A stretch of DNA of 48,255 bases, from the NCBI GenBank assembly GCA_964386365.1, contig CAYLQR010000014.1, forward strand, positions 1-48,255, read 5' to 3'. The translations under genes were made by a program, and so were the position numbers. Each line of letters starts with the position of its first letter. The stretch's first letter is position 1. The DNA is from an uncultured Candidatus Saccharibacteria bacterium. Its GTDB lineage: Bacteria; Patescibacteriota; Minisyncoccia; Minisyncoccales; UBA1441. Under the pieces are notes generated by a model. The model worked only from the letters and a program-made list of their open reading frames with translations. It made no database searches and was not told the DNA's origin. This document shows, piece after piece, positions 1 through 47,786 of this stretch.

Positions 1-2648
1 TGGGGAAAAGATATCAACCTATTTATTTAAATCAACCGATTTCTCCAGCTGATTATCAGATAGTTGGGGCTGATTGGGTTTCAATTGAAGAGGGTTCTGG
101 CCTAGTCCATATTGCTCCAGCCTTTGGAGAAGATGACATGGCTTTAGGCAAAAAGCATAAGTTGTCTGTTAAAATTACAGTTGATGAAGAAGGAAAAATT
201 AAAAATGGTTTAGGACTTCCCGGGGAAGGAAAGAAGGTTTGGGAGGCCAACGAAATAATTATTCAGGATTTGGAACAGAAAAAGCTTCTCTGGAAAGAAG
301 AAAAAGTGACTCATAATTATCCTTTCTGCTGGCGTTGCGGCCAACGGTTAATTTACTATCCGCTCAATAATTGGTATATAGCTGTTAAGAAACTGCAGAA
401 AAATCTTCTTGCCAATAACAAAAAAATTTATTGGGTTCCAGCCTATTTGAAGGATGGTCGTTTTGGTCGATGGTTGGAAGAAGTTAGGGACTGGGCTGTT
501 TCCCGTAACCGTTATTGGGGAGCTCCTTTGCCAATCTGGGTTTCATCTTCAGAAACTAAAATTATTGGCTCTCGTCAGGAATTAGGTAAACAGAAGTTCA
601 CTACTAATCGTTACTGGTTGTTGCGGCATCCGGAATCAGAAACTAATCAGGCAGGAATCCTTAGCACTTCTGAGGATAAGTATCCTCTTACTCTCAAAGG
701 AAAAAAGGAATTAGAAAAAGTTTTACCGAAATTAAAGAAACAGAAAATTGATTTGATTTTTGCTTCACCCGTCCGCCGAACTAAAGAAACAGCTGAAATA
801 GTTGGCCAAGCTTTAGGGAAGAAGCCAGTCTACTGTCCGGAATTGAGAGAAAGAGAAATTGGAGTTTTTGAAGAAAAACCAGTTAGTGATTATCGCTCTT
901 TCTTTAAAAATAAATTAGAAAGGGTTACCCATAGTCCTGAAAAAGGAGAAACAGGTTTGGAAACGAAGATGAGAATGTATCGTTTTCTTCAAAAGATTGA
1001 TCGGCAGTATAAAGGGAAAAATATTCTTTTTATTAGTCATCAAGGACCGTTACGTCTTCTTCTAGCGGCTAATCAAGGATTAACTTCTCCGGAAACAGTT
1101 GATGCCTGGCCTTCTTTGACTTTCGGCTTGGCAGAATTAAGAACTCTCGACTTTAAAATTTTCCCTTACAATGAAGAAGGAGAATTGGATTTTCATCGTC
1201 CCTTTATCGATCAAGTTTATTTTCTTTCCCAAAAAGGAGAGAGAATGAAGAGAGTTGAATCAGTTTTTGATTGCTGGTTTGAGTCTGGAGCTATGCCCTA
1301 TGCTCAAAATCATTATCCTTTTGAAAATAAGAAATGGACGGAGAAAAACTTCCCCGCCGATTTTGTTTGCGAATCGATGGATCAAACTCGAGGCTGGTTT
1401 TATACCTTGAATGTTTTAGCCACTGCTTTAACTCAGAAGAATATTGGTTTAGGGAAACATCAACCAGCTTTTAAGAATGTAGTTGTTCCCGGTTTGGTTT
1501 TAAGTTCTTCTGGCCAAAAGCTTTCGAAACATTTGAAAAATTATCCTGATCCTTCTGTTTTAATGGAAAAGTATGGAGCTGATGCCCTTCGTCTTTTCTT
1601 TTTAACTAGCACCTCTTTGGGAAACAATTATTTGGTTTCCGAGGAAAATGTCCAACAGGTTTGGAGGAAGATTATTTCAACTCTTTGGAATTCTTATCAG
1701 TTCTATACTACCTATCAAAGCAAACGATCTTTTTCTTCTCCAGTTTCAAAAAACATTCTTGATCGCTGGATTATTTCCCGGCTTCATCAAGTAAATAGAG
1801 AAGTTGAAGATAAAATGACTAATTATCATTTGGATGAAGCTGCTCAATTATTAGCTGAATTTATAGATGACCTTTCAAATTGGTATATTCGCCATTCTCG
1901 TTCGCGGTTCCAAAGTGATTTTTCTTCAGAAAAGGAACAAGCTTCTTTGACTTTAGCTTTCATCCTTTTCAGGCTAAGTCTCCTCTTGGCTCCTTTCGCT
2001 CCTTTCATCAGCGAGAGGATCTATCAGGGGTTAGCGAAGGAAGAAAATTTTCCTTCTTCAGTTCATTTGAATGATTATCCTTTGGCAGAAAAGAAGGCCA
2101 TTGACTCTTCCTTGATGGAAGAGATGAAAAAAACGAAAGTAATTATTAGTTTGGGCCTTCGTCTTCGGGCAACAGCTGGGATTAAAGTTAGACAGCCTTT
2201 GGCTGAATTAAGAATTGCCGGTCAGTTTGAATTAGATCGACAATTAATAGCTCTGATTAAAGAAGCCTTGAATGTCAAAGAAGTTAATTGGGTCAAGGAA
2301 ATAAAGCCAGAAGATAGTTGGGCTGTTTACCAAGAAGGAGAAATTTCCCTTGGTTTAAAGACGGAAATGACTCCTTCTTTGGAAAAAGAAGGATGGGCAA
2401 GAGAAATTAGCCGAGCTCTTCAGACTATGAGGAAAGATCTTTCCCTCAAACCTAGGCAAATAATTGATATCTATTATCAGGCTGATTCTCCCTTGGAGAG
2501 CTTTATCGAACAAAAAAGAGCTTTCTTTTTAGAAAAAAACCGAGCTGCTAAATTAGAAAAAGGAAATCGACAAAGAAATTATGCTGCTCAGAAAGAGTTA
2601 AAGATTGGTAATTATTCTCTTTGGTTGGCTATTAATTCGAAGAAATAA
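1..2648 (+). CDS. ileS: Isoleucyl-tRNA synthetase, 5'-truncated by the window edge, with an inserted histidine-phosphatase-like domain
   Basis: The frame is open from nt 3 (..GSGLVHIAPAFGEDD..). IleRS blocks seen: RDWAVSRNRYWGAPLPIW, DFHRPFIDQV, FESGAMPYAQ, DQTRGWFYTL, and KLSKH in the KMSKS position (nt 1518-1532). About 196 aa of non-IleRS sequence lie at nt 600-1187. Confidence 0.9.
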   Translation, partial: GKRYQPIYLNQPISPADYQIVGADWVSIEEGSGLVHIAPAFGEDDMALGKKHKLSVKITVDEEGKIKNGLGLPGEGKKVWEANEIIIQDLEQKKLLWKEEKVTHNYPFCWRCGQRLIYYPLNNWYIAVKKLQKNLLANNKKIYWVPAYLKDGRFGRWLEEVRDWAVSRNRYWGAPLPIWVSSSETKIIGSRQELGKQKFTTNRYWLLRHPESETNQAGILSTSEDKYPLTLKGKKELEKVLPKLKKQKIDLIFASPVRRTKETAEIVGQALGKKPVYCPELREREIGVFEEKPVSDYRSFFKNKLERVTHSPEKGETGLETKMRMYRFLQKIDRQYKGKNILFISHQGPLRLLLAANQGLTSPETVDAWPSLTFGLAELRTLDFKIFPYNEEGELDFHRPFIDQVYFLSQKGERMKRVESVFDCWFESGAMPYAQNHYPFENKKWTEKNFPADFVCESMDQTRGWFYTLNVLATALTQKNIGLGKHQPAFKNVVVPGLVLSSSGQKLSKHLKNYPDPSVLMEKYGADALRLFFLTSTSLGNNYLVSEENVQQVWRKIISTLWNSYQFYTTYQSKRSFSSPVSKNILDRWIISRLHQVNREVEDKMTNYHLDEAAQLLAEFIDDLSNWYIRHSRSRFQSDFSSEKEQASLTLAFILFRLSLLLAPFAPFISERIYQGLAKEENFPSSVHLNDYPLAEKKAIDSSLMEEMKKTKVIISLGLRLRATAGIKVRQPLAELRIAGQFELDRQLIALIKEALNVKEVNWVKEIKPEDSWAVYQEGEISLGLKTEMTPSLEKEGWAREISRALQTMRKDLSLKPRQIIDIYYQADSPLESFIEQKRAFFLEKNRAAKLEKGNRQRNYAAQKELKIGNYSLWLAINSKK

Positions 2649-3355
2649 TGTGGGCTAAAGAGTCAGATGAAGCTTTAGTCTTAGAAGGAGAAGAGAGAGG
2701 AGAAGCTGATCGCCTCTTTACTGTTTTAGCGAGAAGGGAAGGAAAGCTTTTGCTTTTGGCAAAAGGAGAAAGAAAAGCCCTTTCTAAATTACGAAGAGGA
2801 ATTGATCTTTTTTATTACACTAGAGTGACTTTTGTGAGAACCTCGATCAGAGAAACTCTAACCGAAGTAGATTTGATTAAGAACTTTTCTTCTTTCCACC
2901 AAGATTGGCGGAAATTTAGAGTAGCTGACTGGATGGGCCAATTGGCAAATCTGACTCTTCCCAAGGGGGTTCCGGAAGAAGAAATTTTTTTTCTTCTTCT
3001 GAATAGTTGGAAAGATTTAGAAAAAGCAGAAAAATATTATCAGCGTTTCTATTATTATTTTCTTTGGCAATTGTTAAAAAAACTTGGTTATCAGCCAGAA
3101 ATCTCTTCTAGTTCTCTTTTTTTCTCGGTTCAAGAAGGAGGATTTCTAACAGAGAAAGAAAAAACAAATGAATCTTTCCTTTTGAATCCCTCGGTCCACT
3201 ATTGGTTAAAAAATATTCTTCAAGAGGAAAAAGATAAGTTTTATCAAGCTTCAATTTCTGCTAAAACAGAAAAAGATTTGAAAAAAATTTCTCAACTTTA
3301 TCTTCAGTCCCTCGGTTGGGAAAAAGATGGTCGGGGGCTTTGTTTTGAGTTATAA
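2648..3355 (+). CDS. recO: DNA repair protein RecO-like
   Basis: The N-terminus matches the RecO OB-fold pattern (ALVLEGEERGEADRLFTVLARREGKLLLLAKGERKALSKLR). Size is typical. The start overlaps the ileS stop (TAATG). Confidence 0.6.
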   Translation: MWAKESDEALVLEGEERGEADRLFTVLARREGKLLLLAKGERKALSKLRRGIDLFYYTRVTFVRTSIRETLTEVDLIKNFSSFHQDWRKFRVADWMGQLANLTLPKGVPEEEIFFLLLNSWKDLEKAEKYYQRFYYYFLWQLLKKLGYQPEISSSSLFFSVQEGGFLTEKEKTNESFLLNPSVHYWLKNILQEEKDKFYQASISAKTEKDLKKISQLYLQSLGWEKDGRGLCFEL

Positions 3356-23741: not shown

Positions 23742-23829
23742 TGGTGCCGAAGGAGGGACTTGAACCCTCAAGCTCTTGCGAGCAATGGATTTTGAATCCA
23801 TCGTGTTTACCAAATTTCACCACTTCGGC
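23742..23829 (-). tRNA. tRNA-Leu (anticodon CAA), CCA encoded
   Basis: Hand-folded cloverleaf. Acceptor GCCGAAG/CTTCGGC, anticodon arm ATGGA-TTCAAAA-TCCAT, long variable arm, T arm GAGGG-TTCAAGT-CCCTC, 3' ACCA. Confidence 0.9.
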
Positions 23830-23964: not shown

Positions 23965-24318
23965 ATGACTGATGAAAAAAGTACCAACGATGAGTTGGGA
24001 AGAATGATAAAAAAAGGCTTTGATGCGGTTGACAAAAGATTTGACTTGATTGACCAAACATTAAGCAAGCAGGCAATGATGTTGGTTAGTCACGGCGAAA
24101 CCTTAGAGAGCCACACGAAAACCTTAGAGAGCCACACGAAAATGTTAGAGAGCCACACGAAAATGTTAGAGAGCCACACAGAGACGCTGAAAGACCACAC
24201 GGAAAGATTGGGCAGAATAGAGAAAAAGTTAAATGACGTCGTCTATCGCAAAGAGTTCGAAGGATTAGAAGAGAGGTTAAGAATAGTTGAGCAAAAATTA
24301 GGAATTAAAAATCGTTAA
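23965..24318 (+). CDS. Small coiled-coil protein with heptad (LESHTK-type) tandem repeats
   Basis: 117 aa. The centre is MLVSHGE-TLESHTK-TLESHTK-MLESHTK-MLESHTE-TLKDHTE, with helical charged flanks. Confidence 0.6.
   Translation: MTDEKSTNDELGRMIKKGFDAVDKRFDLIDQTLSKQAMMLVSHGETLESHTKTLESHTKMLESHTKMLESHTETLKDHTERLGRIEKKLNDVVYRKEFEGLEERLRIVEQKLGIKNR
24079..24204 (+). repeat. Six tandem 21 nt (7-codon) repeats
   Basis: The unit ACCTTAGAGAGCCACACGAAA occurs twice exactly (24100-24141) and ATGTTAGAGAGCCACACGAAA once exactly (24142-24162), followed by a near copy. The two outer units are degenerate. Confidence 0.85.
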
Positions 24319-24402: not shown

Positions 24403-26451
24403 TTATTGGGAGCTTTTCTTTTCAGGGACTTTTTTTCGGTAGGAACATTGAGGATTACTGCATTTTATCCCTCCTCTTTTATCTTGAATAAGGAGGGATC
24501 CGCATTGGGGGCATTTCTCTCCTGTTGGCCGGCCGGAAAGAGTGAATTTACATTGAGGGTAATTAGAGCAAGCGTAGAAAGTTTGTCCTCGTCGATTCTT
24601 TTTTTCAATAATTTCCCCTTTTTGGCATTGGGGACATTTAATCCCTGTTTTTTGTGAAGGAAGGGGGGCGGTGTATTTACATTTTGGGAAATTAGAACAG
24701 GCGTAGAATTCTCCATAACGGCCAGTTCTTTTTATTAAAGGGGCTCCGCAAAGAGGGCATTTTTCATTAGTCGGTTCTGTCAAGTCTAGTTTCTTTACTT
24801 CTTTATATTTCTTTTCTAGATTCTGGATAAAGGGCTGGTAAAAATCTTTGATGACGGAAGAAGCAGTTTCTTTCCCTTGAGCAATTTTATCTAATTTTTC
24901 TTCCATTTGAGCGGTAAATTGAGAGTCAACAATTTTGGGAAAATGCTTGCTTAAAATTTCATCTACTATTTTCCCTATCTTGGTAAGAAAAAATCTTCTT
25001 TCTTTCTTTTGAACATAATTCCGGCTTAGGATGGTAGAAATAATAGGGCTGTAAGTAGAGGGACGGCCGAGGCCTAATTTTTCTAATTCTTTGATAAGGC
25101 TTGGTTCTGAATAACGGGCTGGGGGCCGAGTGAAATGCTCTTCAGTTTGAACTTTTAAGAGCTGAAGTTCTTCCCCTTCTTTTAAAGAAGGGAGAATTTT
25201 TTCTTTTAAGGTTTGAGGATAGATCTTGGAAAACCCTTTTGCTTTAATTGATTGGCCAGTGGCTCGAAGAAGATAGTCTCCAGCTTCGATATCTAAGCTG
25301 ATTTGATCAACAACCATTGGCTTCATTTGGCTGGCTAAGCTTCTCTGCCAGATTAATTGATAGAGGCGATAGTCAGCTGGGGGGAGTTTGTTTTTTAATT
25401 TATCAGGTGTTTCCTCTAGGTGGGTTGGCCGAATAGCTTCGTGAGCTTCTTGCCCTCCTTTTACTTTTTGTCGGAAATTCTTCTTTTCCCAATTTTCTTT
25501 TTCTCCTTGCTGGCTAAGATATTTTTCTGCTTGCTGAAGGAAAGAAGTAGCCAGAAAAGTAGAATCAGTTCGGTGATAGGAAATTAAACCTTTCTCGTAA
25601 AGTTTTTGAGCTAAACTCATTGTCCTTTTGCTGGAGAAGTGAAGTCTATGTCCGGCTTTGGTCTGAAGGGTGCTGGTTCGGAAAGGAGCAGGAGGAGAAA
25701 TTTTCTTTTCTTTTTTAAGTAACTTCTTTGTTTGGAAATTTTCTTCGGCTAATTCTTTTTTGATTATTTGGACTTCTCTTTGATCAAGTAAGCCGGGAGG
25801 AGGAATCTTTTTTCCTTTAATGGCTATTAATTGAGCTTCAAGTTCTTCTTTTGAGTCAGTCTTTTTGAAGGAAGCTTCAATTGTCCAATATTGTTGAGGT
25901 TGAAATTTTTCAATTTCCGCTTCCCTTTTGGCAATTAAATGAAGAGTTGCTGATTGAACCCGGCCAGCTGAAAGCCGACGCATTACTTTTTTCCAAAGAA
26001 AAGGGGATAATTTGTAACCTACCAGACGATCTAAGAGTCGTCTGGCCTGTTGGGCTTCAACTAAAGAGAAACTTATCTTCTTGGGATTTTGAAGAGCTTC
26101 TTTAATTGCTTCTGGAGTAATTTCGTGAAAAGTAATTCGTTGGTAATCTTGAGGATTTAATTGGCTAACAACGGCAACGTGCCAGGCGATAGCTTCTCCT
26201 TCTCTATCTTCGTCAGTGGCTAAGATAATTAAGGAGTGTTTTTTAATTTCTTCCTTCAATTCTTTGACTGTCTTTCTAGCAGAAGAGGGGATTAAATATT
26301 GAGGAGTAAAATCATGCTCAATATCAATTCCTAATTTGCTTTTAGGAAGATCACGAATATGGCCTCGAGTAGCCAGGAGATGATAGGAAGAATCAAGAAA
26401 TTTTTGAATGGTTTTAGCCTTGGTTGGGCTTTCAACGATAACAAGGGGCAT
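24403..26451 (-). CDS. topA: DNA topoisomerase I with C-terminal zinc-ribbon repeats
   Basis: Toprim N-terminus (PLVIVESPTKAKTI, ATDEDREGEAI), active-site region ISYHRTDS, and three C4 zinc ribbons (CPLCG..C..C, CPQC..C..C, CPQCG..C..C). Confidence 0.95.
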   Translation of the reverse strand: MPLVIVESPTKAKTIQKFLDSSYHLLATRGHIRDLPKSKLGIDIEHDFTPQYLIPSSARKTVKELKEEIKKHSLIILATDEDREGEAIAWHVAVVSQLNPQDYQRITFHEITPEAIKEALQNPKKISFSLVEAQQARRLLDRLVGYKLSPFLWKKVMRRLSAGRVQSATLHLIAKREAEIEKFQPQQYWTIEASFKKTDSKEELEAQLIAIKGKKIPPPGLLDQREVQIIKKELAEENFQTKKLLKKEKKISPPAPFRTSTLQTKAGHRLHFSSKRTMSLAQKLYEKGLISYHRTDSTFLATSFLQQAEKYLSQQGEKENWEKKNFRQKVKGGQEAHEAIRPTHLEETPDKLKNKLPPADYRLYQLIWQRSLASQMKPMVVDQISLDIEAGDYLLRATGQSIKAKGFSKIYPQTLKEKILPSLKEGEELQLLKVQTEEHFTRPPARYSEPSLIKELEKLGLGRPSTYSPIISTILSRNYVQKKERRFFLTKIGKIVDEILSKHFPKIVDSQFTAQMEEKLDKIAQGKETASSVIKDFYQPFIQNLEKKYKEVKKLDLTEPTNEKCPLCGAPLIKRTGRYGEFYACSNFPKCKYTAPLPSQKTGIKCPQCQKGEIIEKKNRRGQTFYACSNYPQCKFTLSGRPTGEKCPQCGSLLIQDKRGGIKCSNPQCSYRKKVPEKKSSQ

Positions 26452-26457
26452 TTCCTC

Positions 26458-26487
26458 TTGACAAAATTATTTATCCTGTTATATTAT
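26458..26487 (+). promoter_or_regulatory. Putative plus-strand promoter TTGACA-N17/18-(A)TATTAT
   Basis: Perfect -35 at 26458-26463 and -10 at 26481-26487. It points away from topA into the pth-topA spacer. A minus-strand TATAAT (26488-26483) overlaps it and may serve topA. Confidence 0.4.
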
Positions 26488-26492
26488 AGACA

Positions 26493-26669
26493 TCCTTTTC
26501 GGTTCTTTCTTTTGCCCGTAAGCAGAGAAAAAAGACTTTTTCCTCCTTAAGCCTTGAAGTATCTTCAAATTCTAGAGTTTCTCGGGTAATCTCGTAGGAA
26601 TTCTGGGGGCTTATGGGCAGAAGAAAGAGCAGAAGGACGAGGAGTAGGTTTTCCCTACTCCTCTTTTTT
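26493..26669 (+). ncRNA. Candidate structured small RNA (~178 nt), class unknown, 6S-like long irregular hairpin
   Basis: The arm at 26493-26523 pairs with 26609-26637: 29 bp, one 2 nt bulge and 4 G-U pairs that would be A-C mismatches on the other strand. An intrinsic terminator GAGGAGTAGG-ttttc-CCTACTCCTC + TTTTTT (26639-26669) follows. No plausible ORF. Confidence 0.45.
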
Positions 26670-27188
26670 GTTTAATTCTTTTTCTAATTGAGGAATAGTT
26701 TGGCGAACGGTCTTTCTAGCTATAATTCTTTGGCGAAGGTTCATTTTTTGGAGAACATAATCTTTGCCGGTTGAGGGGCCAATTCCTAGCCGAAGTCGAT
26801 AAAAATCTTGGCTTTGGAGAGCTTCAATAATGGAAGCTACTCCTTTATGGCCAGCCGATCTTTGGTTCCGGATAATTTTAACTTTTCCCCAGGGAAGGTC
26901 AAGATCATCGTGAATTACCCAAATGTCTTTTAAAGGAAAAGACATTTCCTCTTGAATTTTTCGGATGGCTTGACCAGAATTATTCATCCAGGTTTGGGGT
27001 TTAACGAGAAGGAAAGAAAAATTATCTTTATTTCCTTCAGTGGTTTGAGCTTGGAAAGAAGAATCAAACTGAAAAGGGGGAAGTTGCCAGGTTTTTTGTA
27101 GTTGGTCGAGGAAATAGAAGCCAAAATTATGAGGAGTAGAGCGGAAAGTCGCTCCTGGATTTCCTAAGCCAATGATAAGTTTTTTCAT
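26655..27188 (-). CDS. pth: Peptidyl-tRNA hydrolase
   Basis: MKKLIIGLGNPG.., HN.GF, and the DDLDLPWGKVKI motif. Confidence 0.9.
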   Translation of the reverse strand: MKKLIIGLGNPGATFRSTPHNFGFYFLDQLQKTWQLPPFQFDSSFQAQTTEGNKDNFSFLLVKPQTWMNNSGQAIRKIQEEMSFPLKDIWVIHDDLDLPWGKVKIIRNQRSAGHKGVASIIEALQSQDFYRLRLGIGPSTGKDYVLQKMNLRQRIIARKTVRQTIPQLEKELNKKEE

Positions 27189-33268: not shown

Positions 33269-36001
33269 ATGTTTAATTCCAATCATTTTCGTTTCAATTT
33301 AGGACCGGCGGAAATTGCTTCTCTGATCCTCATTATTCTCCTTTTGGCAACTGGTTCGACTTTAATTATTCGTTATTACCATGCTCATAATCGAGATCTG
33401 GTTCGGGAAGAAAATTTCCAAACTCTTTTTCAATCTTTGAATCGTTATTACATTGATCACGGCTATTATCCAAAGAGAGATAGTGGCGCTCGTTTAGAAG
33501 AAGATTTCGGTTTACAAGCTGAACTCCATAATTATTTAGGAGGAAGCATTCCTCAAGATCCTCTTTATCCGAAGAATTACGAGATGGGGGATATTACAGA
33601 AACTTATTGTTACTTTTATCAGACTAAAGATGGGGGCGGTGATTATCATCTTTTTGCTAAAAGAGAAACTAAGAATAATTTTGTTGAAGTTTATTCCCCT
33701 AATGGACATGATATTGCTTGGACTGGCAGTCAACCTTTAGCAACTGTTATTAATAATGCTGACCAGCCTTTTGTTTCTTCTGATCCTTCAACTATCCAAG
33801 TTCAAACTTCTTCCAAGATTAAAGTTGGTGGTTTGACTTCTAATTTAGCGGCTAATAAAGTTTCCGTTAATTCTCAAGGAGAGAACGACAGTATTTTTGG
33901 CTGGCTAAAGAATCTTGATCTTTCTTCAGCTAATCAGATTAATTTTGATCTTCAGCAGAGTGAAGTGGGAAAAAACGTTTTGGCTTTTTTTGAAGGTTCT
34001 CAATTTTTGTCTTCAGGAGAAGACAAGGTTCGGGACATAATTGAAGATGATCAATATATTTATTTAGCTTTAGAAACTTCTCCAGCTAAAGTATTACGAA
34101 TTTCTAAAGCTGATTTTTCGACAGCTACTAGTAAAACTTTAGCTGAGGGGGAAAGTTTGGCCCAAGTTTTAACTCAAGACGACCATTACCTTTACATCGG
34201 CTTAAATACTCAGCCAGGAAAAGTAGTCCAGTTGTCGAAAGATGATTTTCTGACTAGTCGAACAAAAGTTTTAGGGGCTAATCAGGGAGGAGTTAAAGCT
34301 TTGGCTGAAGACGAAGACTTTATTTACGCTGGTTTGGATACTGATCCTGGCCAGGTAGTAAAAATTAATAAAGAAACCTTTTTAACTAGTATTTTGACTC
34401 TTAAAGAAGGAGAATCTTCAGTTCAGGCTTTAGTTGAAGAGGGAGATTATCTTTACGCTGGTTTAAAAACAGCTCCCGGAAAAGTCGTTCGCATTGGAAA
34501 AGAAGATTTTTCAACCCAAGTTAAGACTTTTGCTTTGGGAGAAGATTATGTTTATGGTTTGACTCAAGACAGTGAGCATCTCTATGCTGCTTTGGCTACT
34601 AATCCGGCTAGAATGGTCCGAGTGGCTAAAGATGATTTTTCGGCGGTTACAAAAGTTCTTGAGCAACGTCAATCCTGGGGGGCAGATATTAGTGGAGATG
34701 AAAATTATCTTTATTTAGCTTTGGCTACTTCTCCAGCTCAGGTCGCCCGAATTTCAAAAGAAGATTTTTCTCTTCGAGTGCTCGGTTTAGGTTCTCAAGA
34801 GAATTCTGCTCAGGCAGTTCTAGCTTCAGGCCCTTATCTTTACATTGGCTTGGATACTATCCCTGGAAAAGTCGTTCGAATTAAGAAAACTGATTTTGAT
34901 CGAACTGGCTATGCTCCAGACGAAGAAGTTAAAACTTTAATTGGCTCGGCTGAAAACTTATCAGCGATGGTTCAGGATCGAGATTATATTTACATTAGTT
35001 TGGCAACTTCTCCGGCGATGATTGTTAAGGTTAATAAAGAGGACTTTTCCCAAATGTTTTCTCGGCTCTTACCTTTGGAGGCAAACGAGATGACTGATTT
35101 GATTCAAGACGAAGATTATCTTTATGCTCCTCTTCATGCTTCTCCGGGCCGAGTAGTTAAAATTAAGAAAGAAGATTTCAGTTTAGATCTCTATCCTTTG
35201 GGTTCTTTCTTGGGTTATCCCCAGACTATTACTCAAGACAGCGACTATCTTTATTTAGGATTGGACGTCTACCCGGGCCGAGTAGTTCGAATGAGCAAGA
35301 CTGATCCGAATGATATTCGGAGCTTAGTTTTGCCGGAAGGCTGCGATCGAGCTCGAGGAATAGTCCAAGATGACCAATATCTTTATCTTGGTTTGACCGG
35401 TGAACCGGCTGGAATGGTTCGGGTTAACAAGGACGATTTCTTAACGATTAAAATTAAATTCCTAGAATCTGGTCAGGAGAATATTACTTGTTTGATTCAA
35501 GACGACCAATATCTTTATCTTGGTTTAGATACAAAGCCAGGTCAGGTAGTCCGTTTAGCGAAGAATGATTTTGAAACAACCATTGCCAAGGTTTTTGAGC
35601 CAGGAGAAGATCGAGTTTTTTCTTTGGCTCAGACCAATGAGTTTGTTTACGCTGGCTTGGGAACTGAACCAGCTAAGATTATTCGTCTTAATAAAAGCAA
35701 CTTGTCTGCTTTGAGTAAGACTTTAGCTGAAGGAGAAGATAATTGTCAGGCAATTCTTTTAGACGCTGATTTTCTTTATCTTGGCTTGAGGACCAGTCCT
35801 TCCCAATTAGTTCGCCTTTTAGACTTAGAAATGATTCCGGAAGTGAAGAAAGCTGATAATTTTCAGCGTTATAGTTTTTCTCTAACTTCCTTGTCAGATC
35901 GTCAAAGGCAGAAAGACCGCTATAATAAAATGGTTTTTCATCCCTATAATCAAGCAAGCGGTTTCACTTTCTATTTGGATAACATTACTTACAGCGAATA
36001 A
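33269..36001 (+). CDS. Giant pilin-like protein: N-terminal hydrophobic helix plus pseudopilin-type head fused to 14 propeller-type repeats
   Basis: N-terminus FNLGPAEIASLILIILLLATGSTLII, followed by NRDLVREENFQTLFQSLNRYYIDHGYYP and IPQDP...YCYFYQ..DYHLFAKRE (pilin/pseudopilin pattern). Then 14 repeats of ~43 aa. Confidence 0.6.
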   Translation: MFNSNHFRFNLGPAEIASLILIILLLATGSTLIIRYYHAHNRDLVREENFQTLFQSLNRYYIDHGYYPKRDSGARLEEDFGLQAELHNYLGGSIPQDPLYPKNYEMGDITETYCYFYQTKDGGGDYHLFAKRETKNNFVEVYSPNGHDIAWTGSQPLATVINNADQPFVSSDPSTIQVQTSSKIKVGGLTSNLAANKVSVNSQGENDSIFGWLKNLDLSSANQINFDLQQSEVGKNVLAFFEGSQFLSSGEDKVRDIIEDDQYIYLALETSPAKVLRISKADFSTATSKTLAEGESLAQVLTQDDHYLYIGLNTQPGKVVQLSKDDFLTSRTKVLGANQGGVKALAEDEDFIYAGLDTDPGQVVKINKETFLTSILTLKEGESSVQALVEEGDYLYAGLKTAPGKVVRIGKEDFSTQVKTFALGEDYVYGLTQDSEHLYAALATNPARMVRVAKDDFSAVTKVLEQRQSWGADISGDENYLYLALATSPAQVARISKEDFSLRVLGLGSQENSAQAVLASGPYLYIGLDTIPGKVVRIKKTDFDRTGYAPDEEVKTLIGSAENLSAMVQDRDYIYISLATSPAMIVKVNKEDFSQMFSRLLPLEANEMTDLIQDEDYLYAPLHASPGRVVKIKKEDFSLDLYPLGSFLGYPQTITQDSDYLYLGLDVYPGRVVRMSKTDPNDIRSLVLPEGCDRARGIVQDDQYLYLGLTGEPAGMVRVNKDDFLTIKIKFLESGQENITCLIQDDQYLYLGLDTKPGQVVRLAKNDFETTIAKVFEPGEDRVFSLAQTNEFVYAGLGTEPAKIIRLNKSNLSALSKTLAEGEDNCQAILLDADFLYLGLRTSPSQLVRLLDLEMIPEVKKADNFQRYSFSLTSLSDRQRQKDRYNKMVFHPYNQASGFTFYLDNITYSE
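34046..35830 (+). repeat. 14 tandem ~128 nt (~43 aa) coding repeats
   Basis: Consensus D(D/E)xYLY(L/A)GLxTxPG(K/Q)VVR(I/L)xK(D/E)DFxxxxxxxLxxGExxxxxLxQ. The copies have diverged at the nucleotide level. Confidence 0.8.
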
Positions 36002-36366: not shown

Positions 36367-37589
36367 GCGAAAAAAGATTTTTTTCTAGACAATTTTTTCT
36401 TCTTGGCTTACTTCTTTTCCTAATGGGAGGATTAATGGCTGTTGACCGCTTTTCCGGACCAGTTTCTTCTCCGGCAGCGGCGGCTGAGAAAACTAATTCT
36501 CCTGAATTAGAGGAAAGACTTCAGCTAGTTGAAGAGAAGCTTGAAAAGATAGAAAGGCGTCTTTCTTTGGCAGAAGGTTATCAAATTATTTCAGAGGAGG
36601 AAGAGAGAATCATGGTGGTCGAAAAGACTCTTCCTTCGGTGGTGAGCGTCGTTGCTTCTAAGAAAGTAGCTCTTTATTCTTCTTGGTTTGATTGGCCCGG
36701 TCTTTACAATCAACCAGAAGAAGAAAGGGAAATTAGCAGTGGGACTGGTTTCTTGGTGACTAAAGAAGGAATGATTTTGACTAATAAACACGTGGTGGAA
36801 GACGAAGAAGCAAATTACACGGTTATTACCAATGAAGGGGAAAAATATTCAGCTGAAGTTTTGGCTAGAGATCCTTTTCAAGATTTAGCTTTGATTAAAA
36901 TAGAGGGAGAAGGATTCCAGCCAGTTACTTTAGGAGATTCTTCTGAATTAAAATTAGGAGAGAGCGTTATTTCTATTGGCAATGCTTTAGGAGAATTCCA
37001 GAATACGGTTTCTACTGGTATTATCTCCGGCTTAAGCCGAAATATTAATGCTTCTGGCGGAGGAAAAGTAGAAGCCTTAAATAATGTTATTCAGACTGAT
37101 GCAGCTATTAATGTTGGTAATTCTGGCGGTCCATTGCTTAATTTAAGAGGAGAAGTAATCGGGATTAATGTGGCTATGGCTCAATCAGCTGAGAATATTG
37201 CTTTTTCTATCCCCATTAATCAGGCGAAAAAGGCCATTCAGCAAGTAGAAGCTGAAGGGAAGATTATTTATCCTTATTTAGGAATCCGCTATCTGGCGGT
37301 TAACCAAGCAATTCAAGAGAAATATGAATTGGAAATGGATTCTGGGGCTCTCTTAGTTAGGGGGGATTCGGTTCTTGAACCGGCCGTTGATCCGAATTCA
37401 GCTGCCGATCAAATGGGATTGAAAGAAGGAGATATCATTTTAGAGATTGATGGTCAAAGAATTGATAATGATCATCTTTTAGGAGATTTAATTTCTGATT
37501 ATCAGCCCGGAGATAAAGTGGTCCTTAAGGTTTGGAGAGATGGGCAGATTAAAACCTTCTCTGGATCTCTAGGAAGTAAAGAAAGTTAG
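36363..37589 (+). CDS. htrA: HtrA/DegP-family serine protease with PDZ domain
   Basis: TNKHVV (His), D..LIKI (Asp), GNSGGPLLN (Ser), and a C-terminal PDZ (GLKEGDIILEIDG). Confidence 0.9.
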   Translation: MSEKRFFSRQFFLLGLLLFLMGGLMAVDRFSGPVSSPAAAAEKTNSPELEERLQLVEEKLEKIERRLSLAEGYQIISEEEERIMVVEKTLPSVVSVVASKKVALYSSWFDWPGLYNQPEEEREISSGTGFLVTKEGMILTNKHVVEDEEANYTVITNEGEKYSAEVLARDPFQDLALIKIEGEGFQPVTLGDSSELKLGESVISIGNALGEFQNTVSTGIISGLSRNINASGGGKVEALNNVIQTDAAINVGNSGGPLLNLRGEVIGINVAMAQSAENIAFSIPINQAKKAIQQVEAEGKIIYPYLGIRYLAVNQAIQEKYELEMDSGALLVRGDSVLEPAVDPNSAADQMGLKEGDIILEIDGQRIDNDHLLGDLISDYQPGDKVVLKVWRDGQIKTFSGSLGSKES

Positions 37590-47126: not shown

Positions 47127-47786
47127 ATGAAAGAAACAGAATTAATCAATCAAATTAAATCTTTGCAGGGAGTGAAACCAAGCCAAGCTTGGGTAGAAAA
47201 GACAGAAAGAAATATTTTAGGAGAAGAAAAGTCTTTCTCCTTTTCTTGGACTCCATTAGTCGCGAGTTTAGCGATAATGGGGGTTGTTCTAGCTGGAGTA
47301 GCTGGCTATTATTATTTCCCTCGAGAAACAACTTCGGTTGCTGAAAGTCCAAGTGTCTTCGATAATCAAATGGCTAGTTTAGCTCCTTCCTTAGAAAACC
47401 TGAAAGGACAAATCGATGAAGCTTCTGAAAACTTAAAGGTAATGGCTGAAGGGACTTCTCTTTCTTCAGAAAAGAAAGCGGTGATTCGAAAGACAATTGA
47501 AGAAAGTCAGCAGATTGTAGAAAAGATTCAAGCTTTGGATGAAAAACAAAGCCTGAGTTCTTTAATGAGTGAAGTAGAGACGAGTCGACAAGGTTTAATG
47601 ATTGAATTTACTCGTCGAGAGATTGAAAAATTAAAAGAACAAAAAGAAGAAGGCCTTTTGCCAGAAGAGAAAATGGAAGGGTTAGCGATGATTGAAGATT
47701 TAATGGCTGAAGGTCAGGCAGAGGAAGCTTTTTACCAGCTTCTTCTTTTGGAGAACGGCAGTTCTCCTTTAAATAATGATAATTGA
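47127..47786 (+). CDS. Single-pass membrane protein, possible anti-sigma or ECF-regulon envelope protein
   Basis: A ~40 aa cytoplasmic N-terminus, a TM helix (LVASLAIMGVVLAGVAGYYYF), and a coiled-coil exterior. A strong SD is present. Confidence 0.6.
   Translation: MKETELINQIKSLQGVKPSQAWVEKTERNILGEEKSFSFSWTPLVASLAIMGVVLAGVAGYYYFPRETTSVAESPSVFDNQMASLAPSLENLKGQIDEASENLKVMAEGTSLSSEKKAVIRKTIEESQQIVEKIQALDEKQSLSSLMSEVETSRQGLMIEFTRREIEKLKEQKEEGLLPEEKMEGLAMIEDLMAEGQAEEAFYQLLLLENGSSPLNNDN

Follow-up and report, generated by a model that had tools for sequence, protein, structure and literature searches.

This report concerns an RNA gene in a 48,255-nt stretch of DNA from an uncultured Candidatus Saccharibacteria bacterium (contig CAYLQR010000014.1, positions 1 to 48,255, assembly GCA_964386365.1), which we call the window. 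In the spacer between topA and the peptidyl-tRNA hydrolase gene, pth, positions 26493-26669 of the plus strand constitute, in our interpretation, a stand-alone gene for a structured non-coding RNA of ~177 nt. We put the probability that the plus strand truly carries a structured RNA gene, and one belonging to a new family, at roughly 0.9. The family is previously uncatalogued, and is conserved beside pth in Patescibacteria (the Candidate Phyla Radiation, CPR); the literature searched contained no description of this RNA. An original prediction, made from the letters of the window, had suggested an independently transcribed, strand-specific, non-coding structured RNA whose class it left open, and the comparative sequence evidence supports that suggestion. 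As to function, we favor base-pairing of an exposed hairpin loop with Shine-Dalgarno (SD) sequences, at a probability of about 0.4. The elements of the RNA and its two neighboring genes are listed here in window coordinates.

26458..26463, plus strand: -35 box, TTGACA (consensus promoter scan)
26480..26487, plus strand: -10 region, either TATATT at 26480-26485 (spacer 16, TG upstream) or TATTAT at 26482-26487 (spacer 18)
26493..26523, plus strand: P1, 5' strand; pyrimidine-rich, UCUUUCU invariant in the clade
26524..26526 and 26562..26564, plus strand: base of the P2 arm, AGA pairing with UCU
26527..26531, plus strand: P2 internal loop, 5' side; GAAAA, opposite the invariant AGUA
26532..26538, plus strand: P2a, 5' strand; AAGACUU
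26539..26548, plus strand: P2a hairpin loop, UUUCCUCCUU; a motif resembling the anti-SD and the 16S rRNA tail
26549..26555, plus strand: P2a, 3' strand; AAGCCUU
26556..26561, plus strand: P2 internal loop, 3' side; GAAGUA, of which AGUA is invariant in every family member
26562..26569, plus strand: UCU closing the P2 arm, then junction UCAAA (26565-26569)
26570..26608, plus strand: P3, a bulged hairpin of 17 bp (26570-26586 with 26591-26608), 1-nt bulge at 26595, loop UAAU at 26587-26590
26609..26637, plus strand: P1, 3' strand; purine-rich, AGAAAGA invariant in the clade
26639..26669, plus strand: intrinsic terminator, 10-bp stem with 6 GC, 5-nt loop, U6 (scan)
26655..27188, minus strand: pth (Pfam), the convergent neighbor, syntenic with the RNA in every lineage
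24403..26451, minus strand: topA (Pfam), on the other side of the spacer

The original prediction had placed a promoter, a long helix and a terminator on the plus strand, and reading of the sequence, signal scans and folding located all three exactly there. The promoter is predicted to be a near-consensus sigma-70 promoter. The TTGACA-18-TATTAT arrangement that had been proposed for it exists but is not the only choice, since TATATT at a spacer of 16 scores equally in the consensus scan (11/12 for each). Judged from these promoter elements, the RNA would start at ~26492-26494. The terminator arms, GAGGAGTAGG and CCTACTCCTC, occupy 26639-26663 and are followed by T6 at 26664-26669; the terminator extends over the final five pth codons, which are on the opposite strand, and its 3' arm contains the pth stop codon (26655-26657). 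At the other end, the -35 box sits 6 nt from the topA start codon, and TTCCTC between the two is the reverse complement of the topA SD, GAGGAA. The -10 region (26476-26488) is nearly palindromic: the minus strand reads TATAAT from 26486 to 26481, ~30 nt upstream of the topA start and with no -35 box, and this may or may not represent a divergent topA promoter. The absence of a credible open reading frame (ORF) from the RNA, which had also been predicted, holds: the sole plus-strand ORF inside it (20 aa, 26613-26675) was rejected as coding and judged not to be conserved because its ATG reads ATA in most relatives. A 29-aa minus-strand ORF was rejected as not credible.

The plus strand folds into an unusually stable structure. 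RNAfold gave -84.5 kcal/mol for 26488-26672, versus -50.6 +/- 3.7 kcal/mol for 200 dinucleotide shuffles (z -9.1, 0/200), and -62.1 kcal/mol (z -4.6) for the minus strand of the same region. In the minimum free energy (MFE) fold, 26493-26499 and 26502-26523 pair with 26609-26637, giving 29 bp (7 + 22) with a 2-nt bulge at 26500-26501 and zero mismatches. Read directly from the sequence, each of the four non-Watson-Crick pairs that had been named in this helix is a U-G or G-U pair when the plus strand is considered. Our model of the conserved fold is a three-way junction of P1, P2 and P3, in which the long closing helix, P1, probably confers stability and may be a site for RNase III. The short hairpin TTGAAG-tat-CTTCAA, also part of the original prediction, occurs in the MFE fold of the window but does not stand as a conserved helix; the P2a stem that overlaps it does. 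We rejected this inner hairpin (P2b, 26554-26568), which is weakly supported, with its middle pair unpaired in 5/9 sequences, is absent outside the clade, and is replaced by P2a.

The RNA is conserved in every close relative found (taxon labels, here and below, are the depositors' own). The closest relative by topA, in a metagenome-assembled genome (MAG) labelled Candidatus Saccharibacteria (L001), is at 75% identity, and pth homologues drop fast to 49-62% protein identity. These relatives keep the synteny ftsA-x-HIT-hisS-lepB <> pth-topA with a pth-topA spacer of ~205-215 nt, and every such spacer holds a homologue of the RNA on the strand opposite pth and topA. A degenerate pattern for the conserved core identified seven further metagenome contigs, all at the pth-side locus, and had zero matches in viral contigs. 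A looser pattern for the loop had one viral-contig match, which lies inside an ORF, lacks covariance model (CM) support, and was set aside as chance.

The original prediction had looked to orthologous pth-topA spacers for covariation, and the helices are indeed kept through compensatory changes. We aligned nine distinct full-length cores with MAFFT (alignment A1, 151 columns), without fitting to a structure model. RNAalifold and explicit pair counting on this alignment both support P1 and P3: 93.2% of cells are paired and 13 pairs have changed on both sides, values that 0/500 column shuffles reach, and sliding the partners by 1-3 columns drops pairing to 42-61%. Mean column identity is 84%, far above that of the neighboring pth protein. 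Together, the 84% identity of the RNA columns and the compensatory changes, set against 49-62% for the pth proteins, indicate strong purifying selection. In three of the relatives (L001, 3918-3975 of the minus strand; L086; L101), a tandem ~22-nt unit (CTGTT-ATTAT-A-ACAG-CTT), which itself contains a -10-like sequence, lies between the -10 box and P1, in three copies in L001 and two in L086 and L101. These duplications add 25-47 nt to the 5' leader; they are absent from L097 and L098, whose core is the same.

The family extends well beyond this clade. A clade CM, R1, matched at full length in L022 (Candidatus Doudnabacteria) and L008, both of them distant CPR contigs; E-values from our purpose-built models R1, R2 and R3 are rough. 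In both contigs the RNA converges on a Pfam-confirmed pth and lies immediately downstream of it, with dprA and then topA on the other side, and has a TTGACA-N16/17-TATAAT promoter. Both RNAs fold into a closing helix of ~25-28 bp, a hairpin with a 13-14-nt loop, AUCCCUCCUAU, and a second, bulged hairpin. The inner helix conserved across the family is AAGACUU/AAGYCUU (26532-26538 / 26549-26555 in the window), which encloses the CU-rich loop. Adding this P2a stem to the model (R2) raised L008 from 34 to 52 bits and L022 from 39 to 51 bits, and recovered L005, from a Saccharibacteria MAG of 53% GC. A broader model, R3, matched L110 at 43.8 bits and L108, whose pth is labelled Candidatus Moranbacteria by NCBI, at 31.3 bits. 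The labels of the five distant lineages are thus Doudnabacteria, Saccharibacteria (two) and Moranbacteria, with one unlabelled, and in all five the RNA is opposite and downstream of a pth confirmed by Pfam or BLAST and is preceded by a perfect TTGACA. All 14 tabulated copies have a perfect TTGACA followed, after 16-18 nt, by TAnnnT.

The lineages that carry the RNA number only about seven. R3 had no match in the other ~75 topA-centred loci, several from CPR among them; pth abuts topA in L002, and a reverse-transcriptase gene follows pth in L106, with no copy of the RNA in either. Because of these absences, we consider the family widespread in CPR but not universal. In Uhrbacteria (L103-105), the corresponding site has a hairpin with a CAUACCCUCCAAA loop and, downstream of it, an 84-aa ORF, without a CM match. 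In a Staskawiczbacteria relative (L106, 3072-4436; L107, 2531-3895), pth is followed by a convergent reverse-transcriptase gene (RVT_1) and a bAvd gene in the place of the RNA, an arrangement that looks like a diversity-generating retroelement.

Two further alignments, A3 (12 sequences) and A4 (the five distant members), were made with the CM and so fitted to the model, which inflates their pair counts. With that reservation, 94.2% of cells pair in A3 and 42/50 pairs have changed on both sides (22/26 in P1 and 14/17 in P3); the corresponding values for A4 are 94.6% and 38/50. The helices of A3 contain 90 G-U/U-G cells and 15 A-C/C-A cells, and pairing falls from 94.2% on the annotated strand to 81.5% on its complement. 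These two asymmetries identify the plus-strand RNA as the functional molecule.

It is the P2 arm that holds the most distinctive elements. Its 3-bp base covaries across lineages (AGA/UCU, GGU/ACC, UGC/GCA, GGC/GCC). Above this is the internal loop with invariant AGUA, opposite GAAAA, GAAA or GAGA in most members and AAU in L108. The sarcin-ricin/loop-E consensus has AGUA opposite GAA(A), and on sequence grounds the P2 internal loop may form such a module. The hairpin loop includes CCUCCU in all family members, within a clade-invariant stretch, UCCUCCUUAA, at 26541-26550. When the flanks are counted, (A)UC(C)CUCCUU(A/U), identity with the 3' tail of 16S rRNA, GAUCACCUCCUUUCU, reaches 11/12 positions at most (in L110). 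The loop of L110 is AUCCCUCCUUU and that of L005, L008 and L022 is AUCCCUCCUAU; the 16S tail set against these is AUCACCUCCUUU. The loop is predicted to be unpaired with a probability of 0.97-0.99 in 7/12 members; for four more, the window among them, the value is about 0.5-0.65.

What follows P1 differs among family members. An intrinsic terminator lies within a few nt of P1 in 10/14 tabulated copies, and is deleted in L086 and L101. In the other two, L005 and L008, the terminator is replaced by an SD and a small ORF; L108 and L110, which were examined apart from the 14, also run into SD-led ORFs. No ORF follows the RNA in the window clade or in L022, which have a terminator instead. The SDs of L005 and L008 are UAGGAGGG and GGGAGGGAU, and those of L108 and L110 are UAAGGAG and AUAAGGAGGUG. 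In all four, the SD is complementary to the P2 loop, strongly so in the two that were scored: the loop-SD duplexes of L005 and L008 have energies of -14.5 and -16.8 kcal/mol, placing them in the best 0.3% and 0% of background windows. Furthermore, an extra C in the loop (CCCUCC) is mirrored by an extra G in the SDs of L005 and L008. The small ORFs lie between the RNA and the convergent pth (L005, 707-958; L008, 788-922; L108, 3352-3684; all minus strand), and L105 has one (3049-3303, minus strand) between its CCCUCC-loop hairpin and a convergent pth. These four ORFs encode 44-110 aa with 1-2 predicted transmembrane (TM) segments and have strong SDs; in L110, a 197-aa GGDEF protein occupies the place of the downstream ORF. 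We detected no similarity of the small ORFs to each other and no Pfam match. Since the downstream ORFs are not detectably homologous and are without a Pfam family, the RNA rather than the ORF is the conserved unit.

We propose that the exposed P2 loop pairs with ribosome-binding sites of the GGAGG type and so would block initiation of translation. In relatives with a co-transcribed downstream ORF, the loop would act in cis. In the window genome, its targets would be a subset of mRNAs with strong SDs, reached in trans; this mode is suggested for the window clade and L022 because they have no downstream ORF and the transcript terminates. Strong SDs are found in a minority of window genes, and their scarcity would make a loop of the anti-SD type selective. 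Binding of SDs by unpaired C-rich motifs is well established for small RNAs (sRNAs), including RsaE, other Rsa RNAs and RNAIII (PMC2790875). SD use in the window looks patchy, with start codons called crudely: many genes, including pth and ftsA, have no recognizable SD, and long GGAGG-type SDs are found in few, such as the HtrA-like gene at 36435 and another that starts at 47127.

Several observations weigh against this interpretation. For the RNA itself, the pair counts from the fitted alignments are inflated, as noted above, and run searches found no RNA-seq run that holds the sequence; the runs that contain it are DNA metagenomes only (aquatic, freshwater, sediment, brine). For the loop, P2a of the window has a single A-C mismatch (26535/26552), and the loop is only ~50% unpaired (0.48) in the window's own ensemble. 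A scan of the window for trans targets identified no specific target; it returned generic SD matches only, the best of which, the HtrA-like gene at 36435 (-16.5 kcal/mol), is not diagnostic. Complementarity to any SD is also partly trivial for an anti-SD-like sequence, and within the window clade the loop pairs with the sequence immediately beyond P1, which forms the terminator's 5' arm, no better than background (fraction 0.05-0.38). Lastly, the constant linkage to pth is left unexplained by the anti-SD model, and the 27-29-bp P1, the AGUA loop and the well-conserved P3 exceed what a simple base-pairing sRNA needs. A fold this elaborate hints at a protein or ribosome partner.

What, then, are the alternatives to an SD-binding RNA? 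One is that the RNA binds a protein or ribosome factor, as a ribonucleoprotein scaffold or as a decoy whose loop mimics the 16S 3' tail to titrate a factor that recognizes it. Candidates include a maturation RNase, an initiation or hibernation factor, and proteins of the bS21/bS1 type, with the AGUA loop as a protein-binding module; a 6S-like RNA that binds RNA polymerase also belongs here. We regard this alternative as rather unlikely, although several features are consistent with it. The identity of the loop with the 16S tail reaches past the CCUCC core, AGUA is invariant opposite GAAA as in sarcin-ricin/loop-E modules, and the ends are sealed by a long helix, as in Y, signal recognition particle (SRP) and 6S RNAs. 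In addition, deep CPR lineages retain the RNA even when it lacks a downstream ORF, and the co-transcription of some copies with a downstream ORF is comparable to E. coli ssrS-ygfA. However, the partner is not identifiable from sequence, the GAA strand of the putative loop-E module is lost in L108 (AAU), and the 6S version is contradicted by the lack of an Rfam 6S match at E<=10 for three variants and of a two-sided bubble.

A second alternative, which we judge unlikely, is a cis-acting leader that responds to a ligand or factor. It would control translation of the ORF in L005, L008, L108 and L110, and read-through of the terminator in the window genome, where read-through transcripts would be antisense to pth and extend into lepB-hisS, on the plus strand; lepB starts 580 nt downstream of the RNA on the same strand. 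The distribution of the domain is riboswitch-like, in that it precedes unrelated ORFs (for 1-2-TM proteins and GGDEF) with no intervening terminator. Moreover, in most clade members the loop is complementary, over 6-7 nt, to the terminator's 5' arm (GAGGAG / AAGGAG), which takes the position of the SD in ORF-bearing relatives, so that a pseudoknot between loop and tail could compete with the terminator. Against this, that pairing is at background level in the clade, and in L022 no purine tract follows P1 and the terminator is very strong. P1, at 24-29 bp, is very stable, unlike a switching helix; synteny tracks pth rather than a regulated gene; and no known riboswitch model matches.

A more speculative proposal, for which we hold little confidence, is that the RNA is a CPR-wide housekeeping RNA. 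It would present a mimic of the 16S tail on an arm bearing a loop-E module, and act as a global competitor for SD sites or as a decoy for a factor that binds the anti-SD tail, thereby tuning translation initiation or 30S maturation in organisms whose regulatory repertoires are minimal. A functional tie to ribosome rescue and to quality control of translation would then account for its fixed place beside pth.

It is distinctly improbable that the RNA is primarily a cis-antisense regulator of a pth-topA read-through transcript that sets topA levels through duplex formation and RNase III cleavage, or through head-on transcriptional interference. The promoter scan found no consensus minus-strand promoter in the pth-topA spacer, and with no recognizable topA promoter there the topA mRNA would carry the full complement of the RNA. 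Transcription of pth probably does read through, because the terminator hairpin, read on the minus strand, lacks a U-tract, and the -35 box of the RNA abuts the topA SD and start codon. However, such a role needs neither covarying helices nor invariant single-stranded motifs, and the G-U bias shows selection on the fold of the RNA strand. In addition, L022, L008, L005, L108 and L110 keep the RNA outside a pth-topA operon, with dprA, other genes or a bidirectional terminator intervening. An antisense effect on topA could be secondary and specific to the clade.

Very improbable, in our view, is that the RNA of the window clade is a functionless relic, the 5' leader of an ancestral RNA with a small, possibly toxin-like membrane-protein ORF that has since been lost. 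ORF-bearing versions in four or five lineages fit this history, as do L086 and L101, which lack the terminator and have duplications that disturb the promoter region. Purifying selection on the RNA, described above, argues against it, and the downstream ORFs are not detectably homologous. An element acting as DNA or from the minus strand, whether a palindrome resembling a miniature inverted-repeat transposable element (MITE), an alternative raised in the original prediction, or a structured 5' untranslated region of topA, was rejected: although the minus strand also beats its shuffles and has weak reverse-strand CM matches (30-42 bits), no second copy is among the repeat families and pairs listed for the 48-kb window (CM matches there are the locus itself), all other copies are at the one syntenic site and none in viral contigs, the G-U excess, U-tract and promoter belong to the plus strand, and the perfect SD-like AAGGAGG of the minus strand is followed by no start codon in any spacer variant compared.

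An SD-binding RNA remains the interpretation we favor. Patescibacteria represent a large share of bacterial diversity and have tiny genomes, and no characterized CPR regulatory RNA of this type was found in the literature searched. Conserved in several CPR lineages, with a consensus promoter, a three-way-junction fold backed by covariation and an invariant loop like the 16S tail, the RNA offers a concrete, testable entry to post-transcriptional control in CPR. It is a candidate for a new Rfam family that would improve the annotation of many MAGs, and it flags the pth-(dprA)-topA neighborhood as harboring an unannotated gene.

Other features of the window are recorded here. Five overlapping copies of a 42-nt reference unit (AAACCTTAGAGAGCCACACGA and variants), spaced by 21 nt, lie at 24077-24202, between a tRNA gene (23745-23829, minus strand) and the 3' end of topA; they are inside a 117-aa plus-strand ORF (23965-24318), in which they would encode 7-residue repeats. 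A 910-aa plus-strand ORF (33269-36001) contains at least 12 tandem repeats of 129-132 nt (~43-44 aa) with a motif like D..YLY.GL.T.PGKVVRI.K.DF, and has no convincing Pfam family. At 138-2648 (plus strand), a class-I aminoacyl-tRNA synthetase (tRNA-synt_1, Anticodon_1 and DUF5915) carries His_Phos_1 at residues 160-316, which is an unusual insertion or fusion.

How does the RNA compare with known classes? We scanned the window against Rfam 15 at the gathering score, and 26400-26720 together with the L022 and L008 versions at E<=10. At the gathering score, the window matched two tRNAs only; at E<=10, the three versions had only chance-level matches to microRNA, long non-coding RNA and sRNA models, and no match to known aptamer (riboswitch) models. 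For lack of a match at either threshold, we rejected 6S RNA, SRP RNA, transfer-messenger RNA (tmRNA), RNase P RNA, T-box, 5S rRNA and Y RNA. The original prediction had seen no signature of 6S, SRP, tmRNA or RNase P, and Rfam lists none, but the resemblance to 6S RNA that it raised is not borne out, given the lack of an Rfam match at E<=10 and a three-way junction with no 3' bubble strand. A downstream gene of the riboswitch type is absent from the window, where antisense pth follows the terminator, and present in L005, L008, L108 and L110.

In general form, the RNA is nonetheless like 6S RNA (ssrS, RF00013), which is also ~150-180 nt, has its ends paired in a long helix and a strong sigma-70 promoter, is sometimes co-transcribed with a downstream ORF, and has conserved synteny. 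Unlike 6S RNA, it has no two-sided bubble resembling an open promoter: the 5' side of the junction has ~46 nt with a hairpin, and on the 3' side P3 abuts P1, leaving 0-1 nt between them. Type I toxin mRNA leaders (hok, tisB, aapA1) are similar to L005, L008 and L108, in which a structured anti-SD 5' domain precedes a small ORF with 1-2 TM segments and a strong SD. In contrast to those leaders, an ORF is lacking in the window copy and in L022, the ORFs of other members are not conserved and one encodes GGDEF, and the neighborhood is conserved, housekeeping, and neither mobile nor duplicated; no antitoxin RNA is evident at the locus, although none was specifically sought. The topology, with a closing helix formed by the ends, an internal-loop arm with a 10-14-nt hairpin loop, and a second, bulged arm with a small loop, is similar to that of 5S rRNA and Y RNA, and a possible loop-E-like AGUA module is shared as well. 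P1 is three times the length of 5S helix I, however, and there is no Ro/Rsr gene nearby.

With respect to the proposed mechanism, the comparison is with RsaE/RoxS, the other Rsa RNAs, and hairpins 7, 13 and 14 of RNAIII. These are stable, structured RNAs with their own promoter and intrinsic terminator, signals that are predicted here, and their most conserved element is likewise an unpaired C/U-rich hairpin-loop motif complementary to the SD (PMC2790875). The CPR RNA differs in having a single long loop of the CCUCCU type rather than several UCCC motifs, a 27-29-bp closing helix from end to end, a three-way junction, a host range in Patescibacteria, pairing with targets that is predicted, and no sequence or CM similarity to any Rfam sRNA. 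As in the case of RNAIII, some members of the family carry a small ORF.

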